Source: an uncultured Anaerolineae bacterium
Lineage (GTDB): Bacteria > Chloroflexota > Anaerolineae > SSC4 > Amarolineaceae
DNA: 46,136 nt
Assembly: GCA_964642445.1 (NCBI GenBank)
Contig: CAZXQZ010000004.1
Span: 1 to 46,136, forward strand
Direction: 5' to 3'
The notes under the pieces were generated by a model that was given only the letters and a program-made list of their open reading frames with translations, ran no database searches and had not been told where the DNA came from. Position numbers and translations under genes: made by a program. Below, piece after piece: positions 3,948-28,217 of the stretch. Within the stretch, counting starts at the first letter, position 1. Every line of letters begins with the position of its first letter.

Positions 3948-5450
3948 ATGCAGCTTCCAGACACTGCGGCCATCATACTCTCACCCTACGATAGTTCCCT
4001 GGGGTTCTCTCCTGGTCCAGAACTGGAAAAGGACTGCGCCTGCAGCACGCCGGACTTGTACACCCATACGCTGCCTGTGCAACCGTCAGGGCCCCGTGCC
4101 GACCGCCACTACCAGGCCCAGGCACTGTTCCAGCAACCCCTGCACACCAACTGGACCCTGCTCTGCAACCCGGCCGCCACCCACAGCCTGGCCGTGGTCA
4201 CGCCGCCGGTGCTCGACATCCTGGCCGCCTTCGCACAACCGCGTACCCTGTCCGACGGCATCCGGCACGCCGGCGCACCAGCTCACGGCCCGGCCACCGC
4301 CCACCGCCTGGTCGACCTGGGGCTGCTGCGCGTGCCCGACACGACGCCGGCCCTCCCCGCGCCAGACACCACCCTCACCGCCTGGTTACACGTGACCAAC
4401 GCCTGTAACCTGCGCTGCACCTACTGCTACGTCAACAAAACCGCCGACCGGATGGCGGCCGAAACCGGACGCCAGGCCGTCGATGCCATCCTGCGCACCG
4501 CACAAAACAATCACTTCCAACGGGTCAAAATCAAATACGCCGGCGGTGAGGCCACACTCGATTTTGGCCACGTTCTGGCCCTGCACGACTATGCCCGCCA
4601 GCAGGCCGCCCGGCATGATCTGACCCTCGACAGCGTCGTGCTCAGTAACGGCGTCGCCTGGAGCCAGCGCATGATCGCGGCCCTGCAGGCCCACGACCTG
4701 CGCCTGATGATCTCGCTCGACGGTATTGGCGCTGCACACGACGACCAGCGACCCTTTGCCAGCGGCCATGGCTCTTTCAGCCACGTGGTTCGTACACTCG
4801 ACCGCCTGGCCAGCGCCGGTGTCACGCCGACAATCTCGGTGACCATCACCGACAACAACCTGGCCACCCTGCCCGAAACTGTGGATTGGCTCCTCCAGCG
4901 GCAGCTGCCGTTCACGCTGAACTTCTACCGAGCCAACGACTGTGTGACCAGTCCCAGCGACCTCACCCTGCGCAACGACCAGGTTATCGCAGCGCTGTAC
5001 GCGGCCTTCGCCGTCATCGAAGCTAACCTGCCGCCCTTCAGCCTGTTAGATTGCCTGGCCGACCTGGCACAGCTCGATGCGGTGCACGATCGGCCCTGTG
5101 GCGCAGGGCAAAATTACCTGGTCATCGATCACAACGGCCACGTCGCACGCTGCCACATGGAGCTGGCACACCCCGTCACCGATATCACAGCCGCTGATCC
5201 ACTGCTTGCGCTGCGTGCACGCCCCACGGGCTGGCGCAACGGACCGGTCAGCGAAAAGACCAGCTGCCAGAGCTGCACCTGGCGCCACTGGTGCGCCGGC
5301 GGCTGCCCACTGCTGACTTATCGTGCCACGGGACGCTGGGACGTGCAGTCACCCTACTGCCAGGTCTATCAAGCCATCTTCCCCAAGATTCTGCGCCTGG
5401 AAGGGCTGCGGCTGCTGCACGATGCCCTCCCGTCCATGAAGCCGACCTGA
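3948..5450 (+). CDS. radical SAM / SPASM-domain enzyme with ~150-aa N-terminal extension
   Basis: A CxxxCxxC radical-SAM cluster motif (TNACNLRCTYCY) sits about 150 aa from the start. The C-terminal SPASM/twitch Cys pattern is CGAGQNYLVIDHNGHVARC...CQSCTWRHWCAGGCP. A strong SD (AAGGAG, 3936-3941) lies 6 nt before the ATG at 3948. An alternative GTG start is at 3927. Confidence 0.85.
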   Translation: MQLPDTAAIILSPYDSSLGFSPGPELEKDCACSTPDLYTHTLPVQPSGPRADRHYQAQALFQQPLHTNWTLLCNPAATHSLAVVTPPVLDILAAFAQPRTLSDGIRHAGAPAHGPATAHRLVDLGLLRVPDTTPALPAPDTTLTAWLHVTNACNLRCTYCYVNKTADRMAAETGRQAVDAILRTAQNNHFQRVKIKYAGGEATLDFGHVLALHDYARQQAARHDLTLDSVVLSNGVAWSQRMIAALQAHDLRLMISLDGIGAAHDDQRPFASGHGSFSHVVRTLDRLASAGVTPTISVTITDNNLATLPETVDWLLQRQLPFTLNFYRANDCVTSPSDLTLRNDQVIAALYAAFAVIEANLPPFSLLDCLADLAQLDAVHDRPCGAGQNYLVIDHNGHVARCHMELAHPVTDITAADPLLALRARPTGWRNGPVSEKTSCQSCTWRHWCAGGCPLLTYRATGRWDVQSPYCQVYQAIFPKILRLEGLRLLHDALPSMKPT

Positions 5451-11773: not shown

Positions 11774-12478
11774 ATGGAACTTCGACACTACTGGCACATC
11801 ATACGCCGCCGTTGGTGGCTTCCGCTGGGCCTGGTCCTGCTCGTTGGTTTGTTCAGCCTGGTTAGCCAGCGCCCCTGGGTATCCCCGCCTACGAACTATA
11901 CGGCAACCCTGCGCTTCAACGTGGGCCTGCAGCCCGAGCCACGCACGGCCGATTATTACACCTACGACCGCTATTACACCTGGCTGGGTTCGGAATATTT
12001 GATCGATGACCTGAGTGAGATCGTCAAAGGCAGCGCGTTTGCCGAAGCCGTCACTGAACGGCTGGCCGGCAGTGGGTTGGCCGTGCCACCTGGCGCGATC
12101 CAGGGCAGCACCCAGGCCGGCAAACTGCACCGTATCCTGACTGTGAGCACCAGCTGGGGCAACCTGGACGAACTGCAGCGCATGACACAGGCGATCAGCG
12201 AAACGATTCAATCGGACCTGTTGCGCTTTTACGGCGCGCTGCTGACGACCACCCCCGGGTCTGTCCCCATCGAGGCCATCCTGATCGATGGTCCCCACGT
12301 CGGGGCCAACAGCCCCGGCCTGCGGGAACGCCTGGACCTGCCGATTCGTCTGATCCTTGCCTTGCTGCTGGGGATCGGCTTGACGTTCTTGTTCGACTAC
12401 CTGGACCCACACGTGCGCGGACGGACCGACCTGGAGGCGATGGGGTTCACCGTCATTGGCGAAATCCCCCGGCGTTAG
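11774..12478 (+). CDS. polysaccharide chain-length determinant, CapA/Wzz-like (paralog 1)
   Basis: An N-terminal transmembrane helix follows MELRHYWHIIRRR. A C-terminal transmembrane helix precedes the cytoplasmic tail. This is the Firmicute CapA/YwqC topology. Confidence 0.6.
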   Translation: MELRHYWHIIRRRWWLPLGLVLLVGLFSLVSQRPWVSPPTNYTATLRFNVGLQPEPRTADYYTYDRYYTWLGSEYLIDDLSEIVKGSAFAEAVTERLAGSGLAVPPGAIQGSTQAGKLHRILTVSTSWGNLDELQRMTQAISETIQSDLLRFYGALLTTTPGSVPIEAILIDGPHVGANSPGLRERLDLPIRLILALLLGIGLTFLFDYLDPHVRGRTDLEAMGFTVIGEIPRR

Positions 12479-12583: not shown

Positions 12584-13246
12584 ATGGAACTACGAGATTA
12601 CCTGCGCATCCTGCGCAAACGCGGCTGGATCATCATTGCCGTCGCGTTGGTGGCGGCGCTGGCAGCTTACGCATTCAGCCTGACCCAGACCAAAATCTAC
12701 CGCGCCACCGCCAGGGTGAGCGTGGTGCCAGGCACACCCGACTGGGGTCTGGGCAACACCGCCAAGGACCTGCTGCGCAATTTTGTGATCAACATCGACA
12801 CGCACGACACAGCACAAAAGGTGATCGACCGCGCGCAGCTCGACATGACCACCTATGACTTGCTGGGGCGCACAGAAGTCAGCTCCGATGCGTCCAATTT
12901 TACGCTGCAGATCGATGCCCGCGATGAACGACCCGAAGTGGCGAAACAGGTCGCTTTGACCATGGCCGATATCTTCGTCGAAGAACGCACCGCCTACTAC
13001 AACCAGCAAGACAAACGCGATCGTATCGAAGTCAAAATCGTCGATCACGTGATCGATGCCCCGCTGTTTCGGCCCAACCCAGCCCTGAACGCCGTGGCCG
13101 GCCTGGTGCTGGGAGCGGTTTTGGGGGGCATCATCGTCTTTGTGCTCGAATGGCTGCAGGCAGACAAACTGCGCACACCCCAGGCCGTCGAACGTTACCT
13201 CGGCCTTCCCGTGCTCGGCGCCATCCCATCGGCCACGGAGCGCTGA
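12584..13246 (+). CDS. polysaccharide chain-length determinant, CapA/Wzz-like (paralog 2)
   Basis: Begins MELRDYLRILRKRGW with a transmembrane helix, and is clearly similar to the upstream paralog. A C-terminal transmembrane helix is present (LVLGAVLGGIIVFVL). Confidence 0.65.
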   Translation: MELRDYLRILRKRGWIIIAVALVAALAAYAFSLTQTKIYRATARVSVVPGTPDWGLGNTAKDLLRNFVINIDTHDTAQKVIDRAQLDMTTYDLLGRTEVSSDASNFTLQIDARDERPEVAKQVALTMADIFVEERTAYYNQQDKRDRIEVKIVDHVIDAPLFRPNPALNAVAGLVLGAVLGGIIVFVLEWLQADKLRTPQAVERYLGLPVLGAIPSATER

Positions 13247-13249
13247 AGC

Positions 13250-13942
13250 ATGCCAATCCAAAATCCAAAATCCAAAATCCAAAATCAAACAGTGTTGGTG
13301 ACCGTGGCTGATCCGCGCTCGCCGATTGCCGAAGCCTACCGCAGTCTGCGCACCAACCTCAGTTTTGCCAACCTGGACCAGACGCTGCATACGATCCTGG
13401 TGACATCGGCCGGGCCTGAGGAAGGTAAATCGACCGTGCTGGCCAACCTGGCCGTGGTCGAGGCGCAGGCCGGGCACCGCGTCATCATCGTCGATGCCGA
13501 TTTGCGCCGCCCAAGACAGCACGAACTGTTTGGCCTGGCCAACGGCGAGGGGCTGACCACGATGCTGGCCGAGGAAAACGGTCTGCAGCAGCCACCCCTG
13601 CAGCCGACCCCCATCGAGGGTCTGCAGGTCCTGACCAGCGGCCCACAACCACCGCTGCCGGCCGAGATGCTGGCGTCGGAGCGCATGAAGCATGCCATTG
13701 CGGCCCTGGCGGCACGGGCCGACCTGGTCCTGTTCGATGCGCCGCCGGTCGTCGCTGTGACGGACGCGGCCATCCTGGCCCCACAGGTCGATGGTGTGCT
13801 TTTGATCATCAACGCCGATCGCACACGGCGCGAACACGCACAGCGTGCGCAGCAGCTGCTGGCCAAGGTCAATGCACGGATCATCGGCAGTGTGCTCAAT
13901 GACGTCACGCCCGACAGCGGCCTGCGTGGCTACTACAAGTAG
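13250..13942 (+). CDS. BY-kinase (CapB/CpsD-type tyrosine protein kinase)
   Basis: Walker A SAGPEEGKST, Walker A' VIIVDADLRRP and Walker B LVLFDAPP. It lies in CapA-CapB order 3 nt after the upstream stop. Confidence 0.8.
   Translation: MPIQNPKSKIQNQTVLVTVADPRSPIAEAYRSLRTNLSFANLDQTLHTILVTSAGPEEGKSTVLANLAVVEAQAGHRVIIVDADLRRPRQHELFGLANGEGLTTMLAEENGLQQPPLQPTPIEGLQVLTSGPQPPLPAEMLASERMKHAIAALAARADLVLFDAPPVVAVTDAAILAPQVDGVLLIINADRTRREHAQRAQQLLAKVNARIIGSVLNDVTPDSGLRGYYK
13254..13281 (+). repeat. heptanucleotide tandem repeat (CCAAAAT)x4 inside the first codons of the BY-kinase
   Basis: A direct read gives CCAAAATCCAAAATCCAAAATCCAAAAT, coding PIQNPKSKIQNQ. A 7-nt unit shifts the frame on a copy-number change. 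Confidence 0.9.
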
Positions 13943-23515: not shown

Positions 23516-24478
23516 TCACCAGTCAGCCTTCAGCAGGCGCAGCAGGTCTGATGCCGCATGGCTGCCGCGCACGCGTACGCGCGTGAGTTCAAACGGCGCC
23601 TCAGACGTGTGCAGCACGCCCTGCTGCGTCGTCACCGCGCCCCAGTAGTCGGCCGAACGAATGACCTGGATCGTGAGGTCGTCATAACGGCCAGCCGGAT
23701 AACAGAACAGGCGCGGCGTGAAGCCCAGCCGGCTTTCGATCATCTGGCGCGAGCCCAGGGCTTGCCAGACCAGAAAATCGACATCGCGCCCGGCGAGATC
23801 GGCATGATCGCGCGAGTGCGATCCGATATCGATGCCGGCGGCGTGCATCTCGGCCAGCTGCTCCCACGAGGCGTAACCGGGACGCTGCATGTCGACGAAA
23901 TCAGTAATGATGAAGAGGGTTGCCATGAATCCGTACTTTTTCAGCAGAGGAAAAGCGTTTTCATAATTGTCCACGTACCCATCGTCGAAGGTCAAAACCA
24001 CACCGTTGGCTGGCAGTTCGGGCTGCCCGGTCGCCAGGTAACTGAGCAGGTCGGCCAGTGGTATCGATTGGTACCCGGCGTCGCGCAGGGCTTGCAGGTG
24101 GGACTCGAACTGTGCCGGCGTGACGGACAGGTCCTTGCGGTAGACATCGGCGTCGGGCGCTGGTTCCGACACGTAGTGGTACATAAGGATGGGCACCCGG
24201 CTGCGGCGCACCGTCCCATCCGGCGTGGGGCCGGGTGTGGCTGTGCTGGTGGGGGTGACGGTTGGCTGCGGCGTCGCGGTTGGCGTGACCGTGGGCCGCG
24301 GTGTTGGGGTGTCCGTGGGCTGCGGCGTCGCGGTTGGGGTGGCAGTCGCAGGGGGCAGTTCACGCGACACGGTTGCTGGTACGGTGGATGGGGCGGTCTG
24401 GCTGGTGGGTGCGGCACAGGCGCCACACAAAACGACGGCCAGGACACCACACAGGATACGAATGAAGACTGTGGGCAC
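23516..24478 (-). CDS. polysaccharide deacetylase (CE4/NodB-like) with signal peptide and Pro/Thr-rich linker
   Basis: A signal peptide, then a linker (PTATPQPTDTPTPRPTVTPTATPQPTVTPTS), then NodB motifs TFDDGY and HSRDH. Confidence 0.8.
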   Translation of the reverse strand: MPTVFIRILCGVLAVVLCGACAAPTSQTAPSTVPATVSRELPPATATPTATPQPTDTPTPRPTVTPTATPQPTVTPTSTATPGPTPDGTVRRSRVPILMYHYVSEPAPDADVYRKDLSVTPAQFESHLQALRDAGYQSIPLADLLSYLATGQPELPANGVVLTFDDGYVDNYENAFPLLKKYGFMATLFIITDFVDMQRPGYASWEQLAEMHAAGIDIGSHSRDHADLAGRDVDFLVWQALGSRQMIESRLGFTPRLFCYPAGRYDDLTIQVIRSADYWGAVTTQQGVLHTSEAPFELTRVRVRGSHAASDLLRLLKADW

Positions 24479-24795: not shown

Positions 24796-25545
24796 CTACC
24801 GCCGGGCCAGACAGATGATCGACGTACCGGCGGGCAGCGACACGCGCTGCATCAGATTGGCTTCGAGAATGCCAACCTGCTCGAGGACACGGTTGACGAG
24901 TGGCGAGGCCTGCTCCATCTCCACCTGGTAGGCTTCGTCGTCGAAATGGGGCGACGCCAGCTGCGGCTCAGCGCGACCGCGGCGCAGCAAGATGCGACCC
25001 GCCGCCAATGGAAAGACGAAAAAGTTGTTGTAACTGATGTGTTCGACGTGAAATCCCTGTGCGACCAGTTTCTGGTCGAGCTCGGGTGCGGTGTAGCGGC
25101 GCTGATGCGCATTCAGATCGTCATTTTGGCTCCACAGCCACATGAAGGCGGGCACCGTGACGATCAAGAAGCCACCCGGTTTCAGGACGCGGTAACATTC
25201 GGCAAAAACGCCCTGTTCGTTCGGTACGTGCTCGACCGTATCCAGCAGCGCAACCAGCCCGAACATGGCATCGGGGAACGGCAGCGAATCAGCACTGCTT
25301 TCGTAGGCGCGCAGCCGGCGCTGGCGGGCAATTTCCAGCGGCTTGGGGTTAGGATCGACACCCATCACCTTGCCGTATAGGGCCAGGTGATGGGCCATAT
25401 TGCCGGCCCCGCATCCGACATCCAGCACCAGGCGGTCCGGATCGGGTTCCAGATACCGGTCCAACAACCCGGTGATCGCACGGGTGCGGCTGGCAAACCA
25501 CCAGTGCCTGTCTTCTTCGATTTTGACCAACATGGGTGTTGACAT
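24796..25545 (-). CDS. class I SAM-dependent methyltransferase
   Basis: Motif [13 protein letters not shown] and the post-I acidic residue in MGVDPN. 249 aa. Confidence 0.8.
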
Positions 25546-25554
25546 GGTATTAAT

Positions 25555-25653
25555 TCACCAATTCACCATGGAAAATCCCTGCTTTATCGTCGAATTCAAC
25601 CACGCCGCCGTAGCCTTTAGTTTCCATTTTTTCCATTTTTTCCATTTTGCCAT
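25555..25653 (-). CDS. candidate micro-ORF encoding a 32-aa Trp/Lys-rich peptide (MAKWKKWKKWKLKATAAWLNSTIKQGFSMVNW)
   Basis: ATG to TGA, ending 9 nt before the methyltransferase start. It arises from a 9-bp tandem DNA repeat. The SD is weak. Confidence 0.2.
   Translation of the reverse strand: MAKWKKWKKWKLKATAAWLNSTIKQGFSMVNW
25621..25647. repeat. tandem repeat (TTTTTCCAT)x3, AT-rich
   Basis: A direct read gives TTTCCATTTTTTCCATTTTTTCCATTTT. Confidence 0.85.
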
Positions 25654-25699: not shown

Positions 25700-26746
25700 T
25701 CAATGGATGGCGATGACGTCATCGATTGCTTCCAACACTGCGCGCGCCTCGATGGCACGCACACACGGATGCTGCGGCAGCTCGGCAGCACCAAAATCGA
25801 GCCGGTTGCATGGCACACAAGCCCAGTCCGACGTGAGGACCCGGTGGCGTGCCGGGTCACCCCAGGGGCCAAAGGTCGATGCCGCGACGGGGCCGTACAG
25901 GTGCACCGTCGGGGTGCCCACTGCCACGGCCACATGCATCGGCCCGCTGTCCAGGCCCACTGCCAGGCGGCTCTGCTGCATGAGGGCTGCCAGCTGATCC
26001 AGGTCGGTGGCTCCAACCAGCGTATGCACAGGGCTATGAACCTGGCTGGTGATGACGGCCACCAGGTCCTGTTCCGCAGGACTGCCGGTCAAGACCACCG
26101 GCAGCCCACGATTCCGCAGCCCGTCGATCACTGCGGCCCAGGCCGCTGCCGGCCACAGTTTGACTGGTGCGCCCGCGCCGGGGTGGATGACGGCGTAGGG
26201 TTGTTCGGTCAGGCCGGCGGCCGCCCGCCACGTGTGTACCCATGCCTGGGCGGCCGCTGTGACGGCAACGGTGAGCCGGGCCGGTGCGGTACAAGGCTGG
26301 CCGGTGGCCGCTTCGATCAGGGCCAGGTTCTGTGTCACTTCGTGGCGGCCAGCCTGATAGGGCACGGCATGTGTCAGAAACGGCTCACATTCTGCCACGG
26401 CGTAGCCGATCCGCTGGGGGACACTGGCCAGCTGCGCCAGCCAGGCGCCCCACCAGTGGTCGAAGCGCAGCACGATGGCCAGGTCGAAGCGGTCGGCGCG
26501 CAGGCGCTGTGCAGTGCGCCAGAGCAGCTGGTACGGCTGCCAGGGGCGCTGACCCGCCTGACGCGTGAATCCGGGAAACGGCAGGGTGCGCAGCTCGTCG
26601 ATGGCGGTGCTGTGCTGCAAGATGCCGGCACCCCAGGGGCCGACGAGGGCGGTGATGTGGGCGGTGGGCCAGGCGGTACGCAGGGCGTGCAGGGCTGGTG
26701 TACAGAACAGGACGTCACCCAGGTGGTCGGGCCGCATCACCAGCAC
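25700..26746 (-). CDS. glycosyltransferase family 9 (heptosyltransferase-like)
   Basis: N-terminal VLVMRPDHLGDVLFCTPAL and C-terminal GLDSGPMHVAVAVGTPTVHLYGP are GT9 signatures. The start is ambiguous, with the ORF extending to 26974. Confidence 0.7.
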   Translation of the reverse strand: MLVMRPDHLGDVLFCTPALHALRTAWPTAHITALVGPWGAGILQHSTAIDELRTLPFPGFTRQAGQRPWQPYQLLWRTAQRLRADRFDLAIVLRFDHWWGAWLAQLASVPQRIGYAVAECEPFLTHAVPYQAGRHEVTQNLALIEAATGQPCTAPARLTVAVTAAAQAWVHTWRAAAGLTEQPYAVIHPGAGAPVKLWPAAAWAAVIDGLRNRGLPVVLTGSPAEQDLVAVITSQVHSPVHTLVGATDLDQLAALMQQSRLAVGLDSGPMHVAVAVGTPTVHLYGPVAASTFGPWGDPARHRVLTSDWACVPCNRLDFGAAELPQHPCVRAIEARAVLEAIDDVIAIH

Positions 26747-26921
26747 ACGTTGCGGCGATGCGATCGTGCCGGCAGCCGTGCGGCCGCGACCGGATGGCCC
26801 CAGGGCCCACAGCACGGCCAGGCGGGTCTGCTGTCGCGGCGTGCGCGACGGGCGCCGGAGGTTGTCCGCGCGGTGCTGGGCGGCCAGGGCCTGCTGTTGG
26901 GCTGGTGGCCACTGCAGGGGG

Positions 26922-28217
26922 TCACTCACACCCGCCACCTGCCGCCGGCTGGCTCGATATGCACGGCGGGGCACCGGTCGGAAAGAGGGCTTCGAGGCGG
27001 GGCACGATCCGGTCCCAGTCGTAGTGTGTCACGGCGTGGGCCTGCGCCTGGCCGCCCAGGCGCGACCGCAAGGCCTCATCCAACAGCAGACGCACCACCG
27101 CGGCGGCAAACGATGAAGCATCATCGGCGATGAGCATCTCCTGGCCATCGACGACGTCGATGCCTTCGATGCCCAGCGCAGTCGAGACGATTGCTTTGCC
27201 CATGGCCATGGCTTCCAGCGCCTTCAGGCGTGTTCCGCTGCCCATGCGGAACGGCAGGATGCAGACGGCCGCAGCAGCCAGGTAGGGTCGCACGTCTGGC
27301 ACGCGCCCGGTAAGCGTGATACCCGCCCGGCCGCGCAGCACGTCGAGACGGGGGTGCGGCTGCTGGCCAACCACCACGAGGTGGGCGTGCGGCAGCCGGG
27401 TCTGCACCTGCGGCAGGATCTGATCGGCAAACCACAGCACAGCGTCGACGTTGGGACGGTAGTCCATTTTGCCGGTGAAAACCAGGGCCAGCGGCGGTAG
27501 TCCGGCCAATGGCTCGACCACGCCGGGCGCATAGGTTTGCAGGTCCACCCCGTTAGGAACGACCGTCACGGGCAGGGAGGGCACCAGGGCCTGCAGTGCC
27601 GCGGCATCGCGTGGTGAGACGGTCACAACGTGATCGGCCTGCCGGCATACCAGCGCTTCGTACGCGCGCAGCTTCTGCCATTGGATGAAGGAGTACGCCG
27701 CACCGGGCCAGCGCCTGGGCTGGCGCGCATCGGTGAGGGCCACTCGCTGCTGCAGCCGGTACTCGGCGTTGTGGTCGTCGAAGATCAGAAAGGGGGCGCC
27801 GGCCGCCGGGCTGCTGCGCCAAACCGGCTGGTTCTGCAGCCACAAGGCATACGGGGCCATCTCGATGCCTTCCACCTGCACGACATCGTAGGCGGTGCTG
27901 GCAACCCAGTCCCCAAGCCGGGCTGCGAAATGATCGACGCCGGCCAGGCGCAGGGCCATGTCGGGTAGACGACTGCCGAGCGTCGTGCGCAGCCGCTGTG
28001 ACGGGGTGCGCGGCGGTGGTGCGGGCACCGCGGCTACCCGACGGCAGAGATCGACCAGCGGTGTGGCGGCGACCGGCGGGTCATTGCTTGCCTGCAGGCT
28101 CAAGACGTCGACCTGGTGACGCGCCGCCAGGCCGCGAATCAGGTTAAAATTACGAATCGTGGTACCCTGGTGGGGTGGATAGGGTAGCTGGGGTGTGAGC
28201 ACCAGGATGTGGGCCAT
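26922..28217 (-). CDS. glycosyltransferase family 4
   Basis: Begins MAHILVLTPQLPYPPHQGTTIRNF. The C-terminal EGFGLP-like motif is replaced by MGSGTRLKALEAMAMGKAIV. Start chosen at MAHIL. Confidence 0.7.
   Translation of the reverse strand: MAHILVLTPQLPYPPHQGTTIRNFNLIRGLAARHQVDVLSLQASNDPPVAATPLVDLCRRVAAVPAPPPRTPSQRLRTTLGSRLPDMALRLAGVDHFAARLGDWVASTAYDVVQVEGIEMAPYALWLQNQPVWRSSPAAGAPFLIFDDHNAEYRLQQRVALTDARQPRRWPGAAYSFIQWQKLRAYEALVCRQADHVVTVSPRDAAALQALVPSLPVTVVPNGVDLQTYAPGVVEPLAGLPPLALVFTGKMDYRPNVDAVLWFADQILPQVQTRLPHAHLVVVGQQPHPRLDVLRGRAGITLTGRVPDVRPYLAAAAVCILPFRMGSGTRLKALEAMAMGKAIVSTALGIEGIDVVDGQEMLIADDASSFAAAVVRLLLDEALRSRLGGQAQAHAVTHYDWDRIVPRLEALFPTGAPPCISSQPAAGGGCE

Follow-up and report, generated by a model that had tools for sequence, protein, structure and literature searches.

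An array of the heptanucleotide AATCCAA lies in the first codons of a bacterial tyrosine kinase (BY-kinase) gene of an uncultured Anaerolineae bacterium of the phylum Chloroflexota. It was analyzed in a stretch of 46,136 nucleotides (the window), contig CAZXQZ010000004.1 of assembly GCA_964642445.1. The array belongs to a class of AATCCAA arrays dispersed over at least 120 bacterial loci, differs in length between closely related strains, and changes the reading frame from the ATG when one or two units are gained or lost. It may well be a slippage-built heptamer microsatellite, similar to short tandemly repeated repetitive (STRR) and long simple-sequence repeat (LSSR) sequences, seated in dispensable first codons of the kinase gene. 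It would then be a mutational hot spot, not a dedicated high-frequency contingency switch.

Array anatomy, orthologues, and length variation

The array was delimited with Tandem Repeats Finder (TRF), which reports period 7, 4.6 copies, 100% matches, and a score of 64 at 13255..13286 on the forward strand. Relative to ATG 13250, the array occupies positions +6..+37. The local layout is GGAGCGCTGAAGC ATG CC (AATCCAA)x4 AATC AAACAGTGTTGGTGACC, and residues 3–13 (IQNPKSKIQNQ) are array-encoded if translation begins at ATG 13250. An earlier note on this DNA, made by a model from the letters alone, had described a fourfold heptamer repeat at the 5′ end of the kinase gene and called it AT-rich in GC-rich DNA. 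The repeat is real, and its G+C content is 0.28 against 0.61 for the window. Its placement 4 nt after the ATG needs correction, as the CCAAAAT x4 run begins at 13258 (5 nt after) and the maximal periodic run at 13255 (2 nt after). Even when as many as 3 mismatches are allowed, a 21-nt form of the motif has one site in the window, this tract, and occurs in 0/100 dinucleotide-preserving shuffles. The only other perfect period-7 run of at least 15 nt in the window is a GC-rich 15-mer at 4294–4308. An Rfam scan of the window at gathering thresholds gave no match, and neither a promoter nor a terminator was predicted at the tract, which leaves a riboswitch, a known RNA family, and a promoter-spacer mechanism unsupported.

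Orthologues were identified by protein search, and the contigs encoding them were retrieved. Five lineages, including the window, differ by about 16–18% of nucleotides in the kinase body and by 36–43% at third codon positions. The array is present at this site, in frame, in four of the five. Perfect arrays of 4.4–4.7 copies are found in three lineages (the window, L001/L136, and L137), and two sequence types carry decayed ones. In L002, which is 7% diverged from L137, the array reads AATCTCA AATCCCA AATCCCA AATCCAA AAT, with one A-to-C change common to two adjacent units. In L004, a 2.6-copy perfect run is left. The repeat is missing from L011 (223 aa, MPTQPPALLITVTDPRSP). In every lineage, the ATG follows the Wzz stop codon at a distance of 3 nt. 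Distances from the ATG to a downstream ACC are 51, 51, 51, 48, 48, 48, and 30 nt (alignment A1). Because L011 is without the repeat and all these distances are multiples of 3, the array is, as judged by sequence comparison, a lineage-specific in-frame insertion in the first kinase codons. Perfect arrays of 31–32 nt have been kept although the lineages differ at 16.7% of nucleotides and at 38% of third positions. Such retention in one lineage pair, with neither homogenization nor selection, has a probability of P=0.0035 at the overall divergence.

Further copies were sought in a metagenome contig collection. A flank-anchored variable-gap pattern had no match there (the fitting JGI contig, L137, evidently lies outside the collection), and a protein-based scan of the same contigs returned relatives of at most 71% identity, none with the tract. 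Distant Chloroflexota homologues carry other heptamer arrays in or near the spacer between wzz and the kinase gene, namely CAGTAAT, CAGGGGC, an inverted pair of TAGGGAT, and the AATGAAC/CATTGGT families (Table 1). The wzz-kinase junction thus hosts heptamer repeats recurrently.

Length variation was found in a sister species. Protein P0123, a 214-aa member of the 90%-identity cluster of P0002, is encoded on contig L135, which differs from L001 and L136 by 1.7–2.4% in the kinase body. The earlier note had proposed comparing copy number among strains, and here, on a contig with about 2x coverage, the kinase-start array has 7.0 copies (49 nt, +14 nt) against 4.6 and 4.7 in L001 and L136. This natural allele breaks the frame. 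Its ATG opens a 21-codon open reading frame (ORF) that ends at a TGA overlapping an in-frame GTG (ttgGTGAcc); the kinase is otherwise intact, and the gene caller began it at the overlapping GTG. Across the orthologues, 11 of 12 distinct tract-bearing protein alleles are in frame.

L001, L136, and L135 also share a duplication of about 75 nt at the junction, which contains the Wzz stop codon, an ATG, a second array, and a 22-codon mini-ORF. The mini-ORF encodes MxIQNxKSKIQNPSA(T/I)P(T/S)AAER* and ends in Wzz C-terminal codons. The join of the duplication and the array have an ATCC motif in common. The upstream, duplicate array has 4.7 perfect copies in L135 and is decayed in L001 and L136, with a 2.6-copy perfect run. 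An assembly artefact was considered for the duplication and rejected, as three assemblies made independently all contain it (MEGAHIT, SPAdes, and an NCBI metagenome-assembled genome, MAG). The L135 array, the differences between duplicate arrays, and the A-to-C change common to adjacent L002 units together indicate, from aligned sequences, that units turn over at this locus.

Start codons and consequences of unit changes

A GGAG Shine-Dalgarno-like motif precedes ATG 13250, inside the last codons of the upstream modulator gene. No comparable purine motif lies ahead of GTG 13292 or GTG 13298, both of which are preceded by the A-rich array itself. The earlier note had asked whether an in-frame downstream GTG could be the real start. 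Both GTGs exist in frame, and the GGAG motif favors the ATG. The ATG is also conserved in tract-less L011. There, the site matching the first residue of distant homologues has no start codon, so L011 must start at the ATG.

Profile and PDB alignments put the array-encoded residues outside the kinase fold, as residue 14 is the first with homology to CapB and the match to the TIGR01007 profile opens at residue 28. They fall in the region that corresponds to the modulator-kinase linker of fused Wzc proteins. Distant kinase homologues begin 7–11 residues ahead of DPRSP, which also points to dispensable first codons.

Unit changes were made in silico. Gain or loss of one or two units cuts the ATG-initiated ORF to 14–22 codons. 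With −1 or +2 units, this ORF has 14 or 21 codons and stops at TGA 13299–13301; with +1 or −2 units, it stops at the TGA further downstream (Table 1). With ±3 units, the frame is kept and the protein has 223 or 237 aa. The frame shift that the earlier note expected from gain or loss of a unit is borne out.

The mRNA around the start was predicted to be largely unpaired. Positions −4..+37 have a mean unpaired probability of 0.85 when the array is intact and 0.41 after deletion of 21 nt. The corresponding means are 0.48 in tract-less L011 and 0.36–0.59 at the starts of five other genes of the window. The array mRNA forms little base-pairing because the array is without G. If the computed structure is a guide, it may bear on expression.

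These observations suggest the following mechanism. Replication slippage would build and maintain the array at the modulator-kinase linker. The 4.6-copy form is in frame with ATG 13250 and is most likely translated as a short hydrophilic N-terminal extension, IQNPKSKIQNQ, outside the fold, and the G-free array would keep mRNA positions +6..+37 unpaired. Slippage by ±1 or ±2 units would turn the first 14–22 codons into a short leading ORF, which after −1 or +2 units would stop at the TGA overlapping GTG 13298. The kinase would in that case be made by re-initiation, or by Shine-Dalgarno-independent initiation just past the A-rich array. The outcome would probably be an altered amount and N-terminus of the kinase, not a clean OFF state, and units would change on a strain-to-species time scale.

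The dispersed heptamer class and the competing readings

An exact scan for (AATCCAA)x3 in one genome per GTDB species found at least 120 stretches (L015–L134, matches for AATCCAAAATCCAAAATCCAA). The matches listed come from roughly nine phyla and include Nostocales and other cyanobacteria, Acidobacteriota, Verrucomicrobiota, Planctomycetota, Bacteroidota, Omnitrophota, candidate-phyla-radiation bacteria, and others, and the G+C content of their loci runs from 32% to 71%. Chloroflexota account for 19 of the loci listed, in at least 14 MAGs, several of which have 3–4 arrays. One AATCCAA array is present within the 46 kb of the source genome examined here. A chance origin of the cross-phylum matches was rejected, as chance would give about 0.3 exact matches of 21 nt in 596 Gb (an estimate that assumes uniform composition) against at least 120 found.

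The class is uniform in form. The at least 120 loci hold 131 arrays, with perfect lengths peaking at 25 and 32 nt. Among the matches listed, 75/129 arrays start exactly at AATCCAA, 36 more start with one or two extra A, and 103 arrays end in AAAAT(C). The window array has the same length and phase and is therefore the modal form of the class. Such a fixed phase is not predicted by plain in-situ slippage from random seeds. Arrays among the matches listed often abut arrays of other heptamers. Period-7 tracts other than AATCCAA number 205 in 864 kb, against 24, 41, 19, and 14 for periods 5, 6, 8, and 9, an excess of 5- to 15-fold that is indicative only, as the loci were chosen for holding one heptamer array.

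Arrays of the class tend to lie at gene starts or between domains. Among the matches listed, ORFs of at least 100 aa with an ATG from −3 to +20 nt past an array number 27 in the sense and 4 in the antisense orientation (binomial P about 2e-5); L073 and L133 are Chloroflexota examples of this layout. Inside Chloroflexota genes, the peptide encoded by in-frame arrays is always IQNPKSK in one of its cyclic permutations, as three heptamers span 21 nt, and the arrays lie between or outside Pfam domains (Table 1). The 770-aa ORF that spans the array in sense at L107 was not used as a coding example, as its translation looks like that of a spurious high-GC ORF. In HypF, the array adjoins another heptamer-encoded peptide repeat, SVVSSQM x3. 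Six Acidobacteriota MAGs (L034, L085, L086, L098, L122, and L123) carry AATCCAA arrays as inverted pairs 15–60 nt apart, which might fold into long hairpins in RNA or DNA.

The earlier note had read the array as a potential slipped-strand ON/OFF switch for exopolysaccharide synthesis. In such a switch, frequent reversible slippage within a population would toggle the BY-kinase and hence exopolysaccharide chain-length control or export. The frame logic of this claim stands, as ±1 or ±2 unit changes truncate the ATG ORF, and a frame-breaking 7.0-copy allele occurs among strains about 2% diverged. The array is also perfect in three lineages, as unit turnover would predict, and the host gene lies within a surface-polysaccharide locus. 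A locus-specific device does not stand, given the class dispersed over at least 120 loci. The copy number of 4.6 is the class mode, is equal in three lineages about 17% diverged, and is far below the 13–24 units of the phase-variable heptamer of hmw1A (PMC8262952). Identical arrays are in frame in housekeeping genes, including those for HypF, an XDH-family enzyme, AnmK-MurQ, and an ABC exporter, where switching is implausible, and nearly all tract-bearing alleles of the kinase are in frame. The ON/OFF part also loses ground, since out-of-frame alleles are not necessarily OFF. The sole such allele, in L135, keeps an intact kinase ORF through the GTGA overlap, as GTG 13298 with its overlapping TGA would in the window after −1 or +2 units. 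The switch reading is thus supported in part, and a dedicated phase-variation switch is rather unlikely.

An effect of the nucleotide sequence itself is somewhat less improbable, though still doubtful. The array would be an unstructured A-rich 5′ leader serving as a standby or protein-binding site, the kinase would start at GTG 13292 or GTG 13298, and ATG 13250 would open a leader ORF that is in frame by chance. The class-wide sense bias of ORF starts just past arrays fits this, as do GTGs 5 and 11 nt past the array, the computed lack of pairing, and L135, which has exactly the array-then-GTG layout. The fixed phase and modal length of 32 nt across phyla suggest constraint on the nucleotide sequence, and cis-acting roles have been proposed for other heptamers (PMC4679880; bioRxiv 10.1101/2022.06.06.494920). 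The position of the GGAG motif argues otherwise, as it serves the ATG and not the GTGs, and an ATG 3 nt past the upstream stop codon suits translational coupling. L011, the outgroup without a tract, keeps the ATG and must use it. Every indel that separates the lineages is a multiple of 3, the gene persists in L002 and L004 with a decayed array, and no trans-acting factor is known.

A neutral, stable insertion is quite improbable. It would be the fossil of one ancient expansion and a harmless N-terminal tag, with neither raised instability nor an effect on expression. Four lineages show no change in total length at about 17% divergence, the arrays of L002 and L004 are decaying by point substitution, and arrays of this size are tolerated in many housekeeping genes, all of which agree with neutrality. 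The +2-unit change in L135 and its differing duplicate array, at about 2% divergence, do not, nor does the duplication of about 75 nt with an ATCC-sharing join in L001, L136, and L135. Three lineages also keep 31–32 nt identical despite 38% third-position divergence, at the P value given above.

The uniformity of the class raises a bolder idea, which we regard as a long shot. The (AATCCAA)x4.4–4.6 array may be a stereotyped 31–32-nt module that recurs across phyla with a fixed AATCC start and a fixed AAAAT(C) end, enriched in sense at gene 5′ ends and in inter-domain linkers. Such a module would point to a dedicated way of making or spreading arrays, or to a conserved trans-acting factor that reads them at translation initiation, and not to random slippage. 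Slippage in the kinase gene would then be a translational toggle between a full-length product from the ATG and a leader-ORF-coupled start at the GTG.

Several points weigh against the microsatellite reading. Translation from ATG 13250, like re-initiation at the GTG, is a step that we infer, and a start at GTG 13292 would give the N-terminus MLVTVADPRSP, which is almost as typical as those of distant relatives. Only two indels are informative on the apparent conservation of frame, an outcome with a chance probability of about 1/9. Array lengths that agree across lineages could reflect the class-wide modal length and not selection on frame, and exact retention of the heptamer over 17% divergence could result from nucleotide-level selection, as for a cis-acting element, and not from homogenization by slippage. 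The coverage of about 2x also tempers the L135 allele, and we know of no slippage rate for these organisms. With these points counted, the slippage-built microsatellite in dispensable codons is still the reading that we favor.

Genomic context and comparison with known systems

The host gene encodes a CpsD/CapB-family BY-kinase. The product scores 175.8 bits against TIGR01007 (curated cutoff 108.05, E 7.5e-52) and matches the CapA/CapB chimera structures 4jmp and 3bfv over residues 14–225 (E about 1e-47). With the adjacent Wzz/CpsC-type gene, these matches uphold the tyrosine kinase assignment of the earlier note. The translation contains Walker A (GPEEGKST), A′ (VIIVDADLRRP), and B (LVLFDAPP) motifs and a C-terminal GYYK, and the C-terminal tyrosine cluster is minimal, with two tyrosines (RGYYK). 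Database protein P0001 is 100% identical to the window kinase and occurs once in the protein collection. The source names of homologues agree with a Chloroflexota-like organism, as the earlier note had supposed.

The modulator gene ends at TGA 13244–13246, 3 nt ahead of the kinase ATG and in the same reading frame. Only TGA AGC parts the two ORFs (12584–13942), and ribosomes that read through this one stop codon would make a fused Wzc-like protein. Relatives L002, L004, and L011 have the 3-nt spacing as well. The surface-polysaccharide locus encodes two Wzz-like proteins, the kinase, an RmlA-like NTP-transferase, an RmlB-like 4,6-dehydratase, and glycosyltransferases, and the RmlA-like and RmlB-like genes lie downstream of the kinase gene. 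Synteny of the first, more divergent chain-length-determinant-like gene is kept in L003, L011, and L136.

Table 1. Features of the window, of its orthologous loci, and of related arrays. Positions are those of the window unless a contig is named.
Feature	Position	Strand	Description
First, more divergent chain-length-determinant-like gene	11774..12478	+	ORF; no Pfam match, weak C-terminal TIGR03007 match
Wzz/CpsC-type chain-length-determinant (kinase modulator) gene	12584..13246	+	PF02706 8.5e-10; TIGR01006 9.3e-17
GGAG Shine-Dalgarno-like motif	13237..13240	+	9 nt upstream of ATG 13250, inside last codons of modulator gene
CpsD/CapB-family BY-kinase gene	13250..13942	+	230 aa from ATG; ORF list, TIGR01007, PDB matches
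Array (AATCCAA)x4 + AATC	13255..13286	+	32 nt, G-free; Tandem Repeats Finder and sequence
In-frame alternative starts GTG 13292, TTG 13295, GTG 13298	13292..13300	+	5–11 nt past array
TGA overlapping GTG 13298 as GTGA	13299–13301	+	Frame used after −1 or +2 units
TGA ending ATG ORF after +1 or −2 units	13309..13311	+	ORF 13150..13311; in-silico unit changes
Junction duplication	L001:100–215, L136:2400–2503, L135:870–962		
Other spacer heptamer arrays	L178:1439–1460, L195:632–650, L190:510–560, L183:51–755, L150:6–39		
In-frame arrays in Chloroflexota MAGs	L016, L053, L130, L052, L105, L061, L082		
AnmK-MurQ protein			AnmK / array / SIS (MurQ-like)
HypF			Sua5 / array / HypF_C
XDH-family enzyme			Array at two sites
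ABC exporter			Array at N-terminus
Bac_transf sugar transferase			Array in linker
RlmD-like methyltransferase			Three N-terminal arrays, 42-nt higher-order repeat
CoxM-like flavoprotein			In-frame array

The window also has tandem repeats with longer units. Those at 25621–25653 and at 25552–25568 fall in a spacer flanked by two minus-strand ORFs, one putatively heptosyltransferase-like (25700..26974) and one putatively methyltransferase-like (24796..25545). An AT-rich 9-nt repeat of this spacer, TTTCCATTT x3.1–3.9, supplies on its minus strand the first codons (MEKMEKMETK) of a 31-aa ORF from 25645 to 25550, which ends 4 nt ahead of the putative methyltransferase ATG. An 8-nt repeat, AATTCACC x2.1, is found at the 3′ end of the 31-aa ORF. 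A GC-rich tandem repeat with period 30 (or 24) occupies 24248–24341, with about 3.3 copies that are 71–86% identical and a TRF score of 104.

The tract marks a site where one slippage event can change the expression or the N-terminus of a kinase for exopolysaccharide polymerization and export. The natural out-of-frame allele of L135 indicates that such a change occurs in the wild, which bears on strain-level variation of surface polysaccharides in uncultured Chloroflexota. Annotation of similar genes calls for care, as arrays cause start-codon ambiguity and strain-specific frameshifts. The unexplained excess of heptamers, as in cyanobacterial STRR sequences and the TAACTGA repeats of Beggiatoaceae, is extended here to Chloroflexota, Acidobacteriota, Verrucomicrobiota, and Planctomycetota. 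With AATCCAA, there is a definite motif to count in studies of the origin of such arrays and of a possible part in translation.

Heptanucleotide repeats close to gene starts are a known kind of element in bacteria, and the window array adds a case in Chloroflexota. AATCCAA is not among the heptamer motifs named in the heptamer-repeat literature searched, and a search combining heptamer repeats with Chloroflexi found no paper describing heptamer repeats in Chloroflexota. Searches with bare heptamer strings returned irrelevant primer and sequence matches only.

Among long simple-sequence repeats, heptamers show the strongest over-representation in many bacteria (Mrazek, Guo & Shah 2007, summarized in PMC4679880 and PMC4692102), and STRR heptamers of Calothrix PCC 7601 are likewise cited in PMC4692102. 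The AATCCAA arrays resemble these LSSR and STRR heptamers in the 7-nt unit, short tandem arrays, many dispersed loci, heptamer excess, and abutting arrays of different heptamers, and many of the matches listed for the motif are in Nostocales and other cyanobacteria. They differ in that the window array lies inside the first codons of a gene and is not intergenic.

The TAACTGA direct repeats of marine Beggiatoaceae, cyanobacteria, and Bacteroidetes come in 2–6 copies and lie a few nucleotides upstream of start codons (MacGregor 2015, PMC4679880). They are mostly in one orientation, and those within ORFs lie at protein termini or outside domains. Their distribution among phyla is patchy, a translational role has been proposed, and no mechanism of transfer is known (PMC4679880). 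The likeness to AATCCAA is positional and functional only, as the motif differs. TAACTGA has stops in all forward frames and is untranslatable in that orientation, whereas AATCCAA has no stop in any frame and is often translated (IQNPKSK). The window array lies past ATG 13250, with the in-frame GTGs 5 and 11 nt further on. In Nostoc PCC 7120, heptamer repeats near start codons have been experimentally implicated in regulation, inconclusively (bioRxiv 10.1101/2022.06.06.494920).

The gene pair resembles the split Firmicutes-type CapA/CapB or CpsC/CpsD systems, in which a Wzz-like membrane modulator and a cytoplasmic Walker-type tyrosine kinase are encoded separately by adjacent genes. The window kinase differs from CapB in 7 extra, repeat-encoded N-terminal residues and in a C-terminal tyrosine cluster reduced to YY (GYYK).

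Intragenic tetra- or pentanucleotide tracts are responsible for phase variation in surface genes of Haemophilus and Neisseria. The window array resembles such simple-sequence-repeat systems in having a unit that is not a multiple of 3, a place at the 5′ end of a surface-polysaccharide-related gene, an altered frame, and a natural allele with a different copy number. The hmw1A gene of Haemophilus influenzae has a phase-variable (ATCTTTC)n heptamer of 13–24 units between promoters (PMC8262952); the window array has 4.6 copies, and its host is an environmental member of the Chloroflexota, not a host-adapted pathogen. Unlike phase-variable tracts, arrays of the window type also occur in housekeeping genes, and the out-of-frame allele keeps a coupled GTG start.

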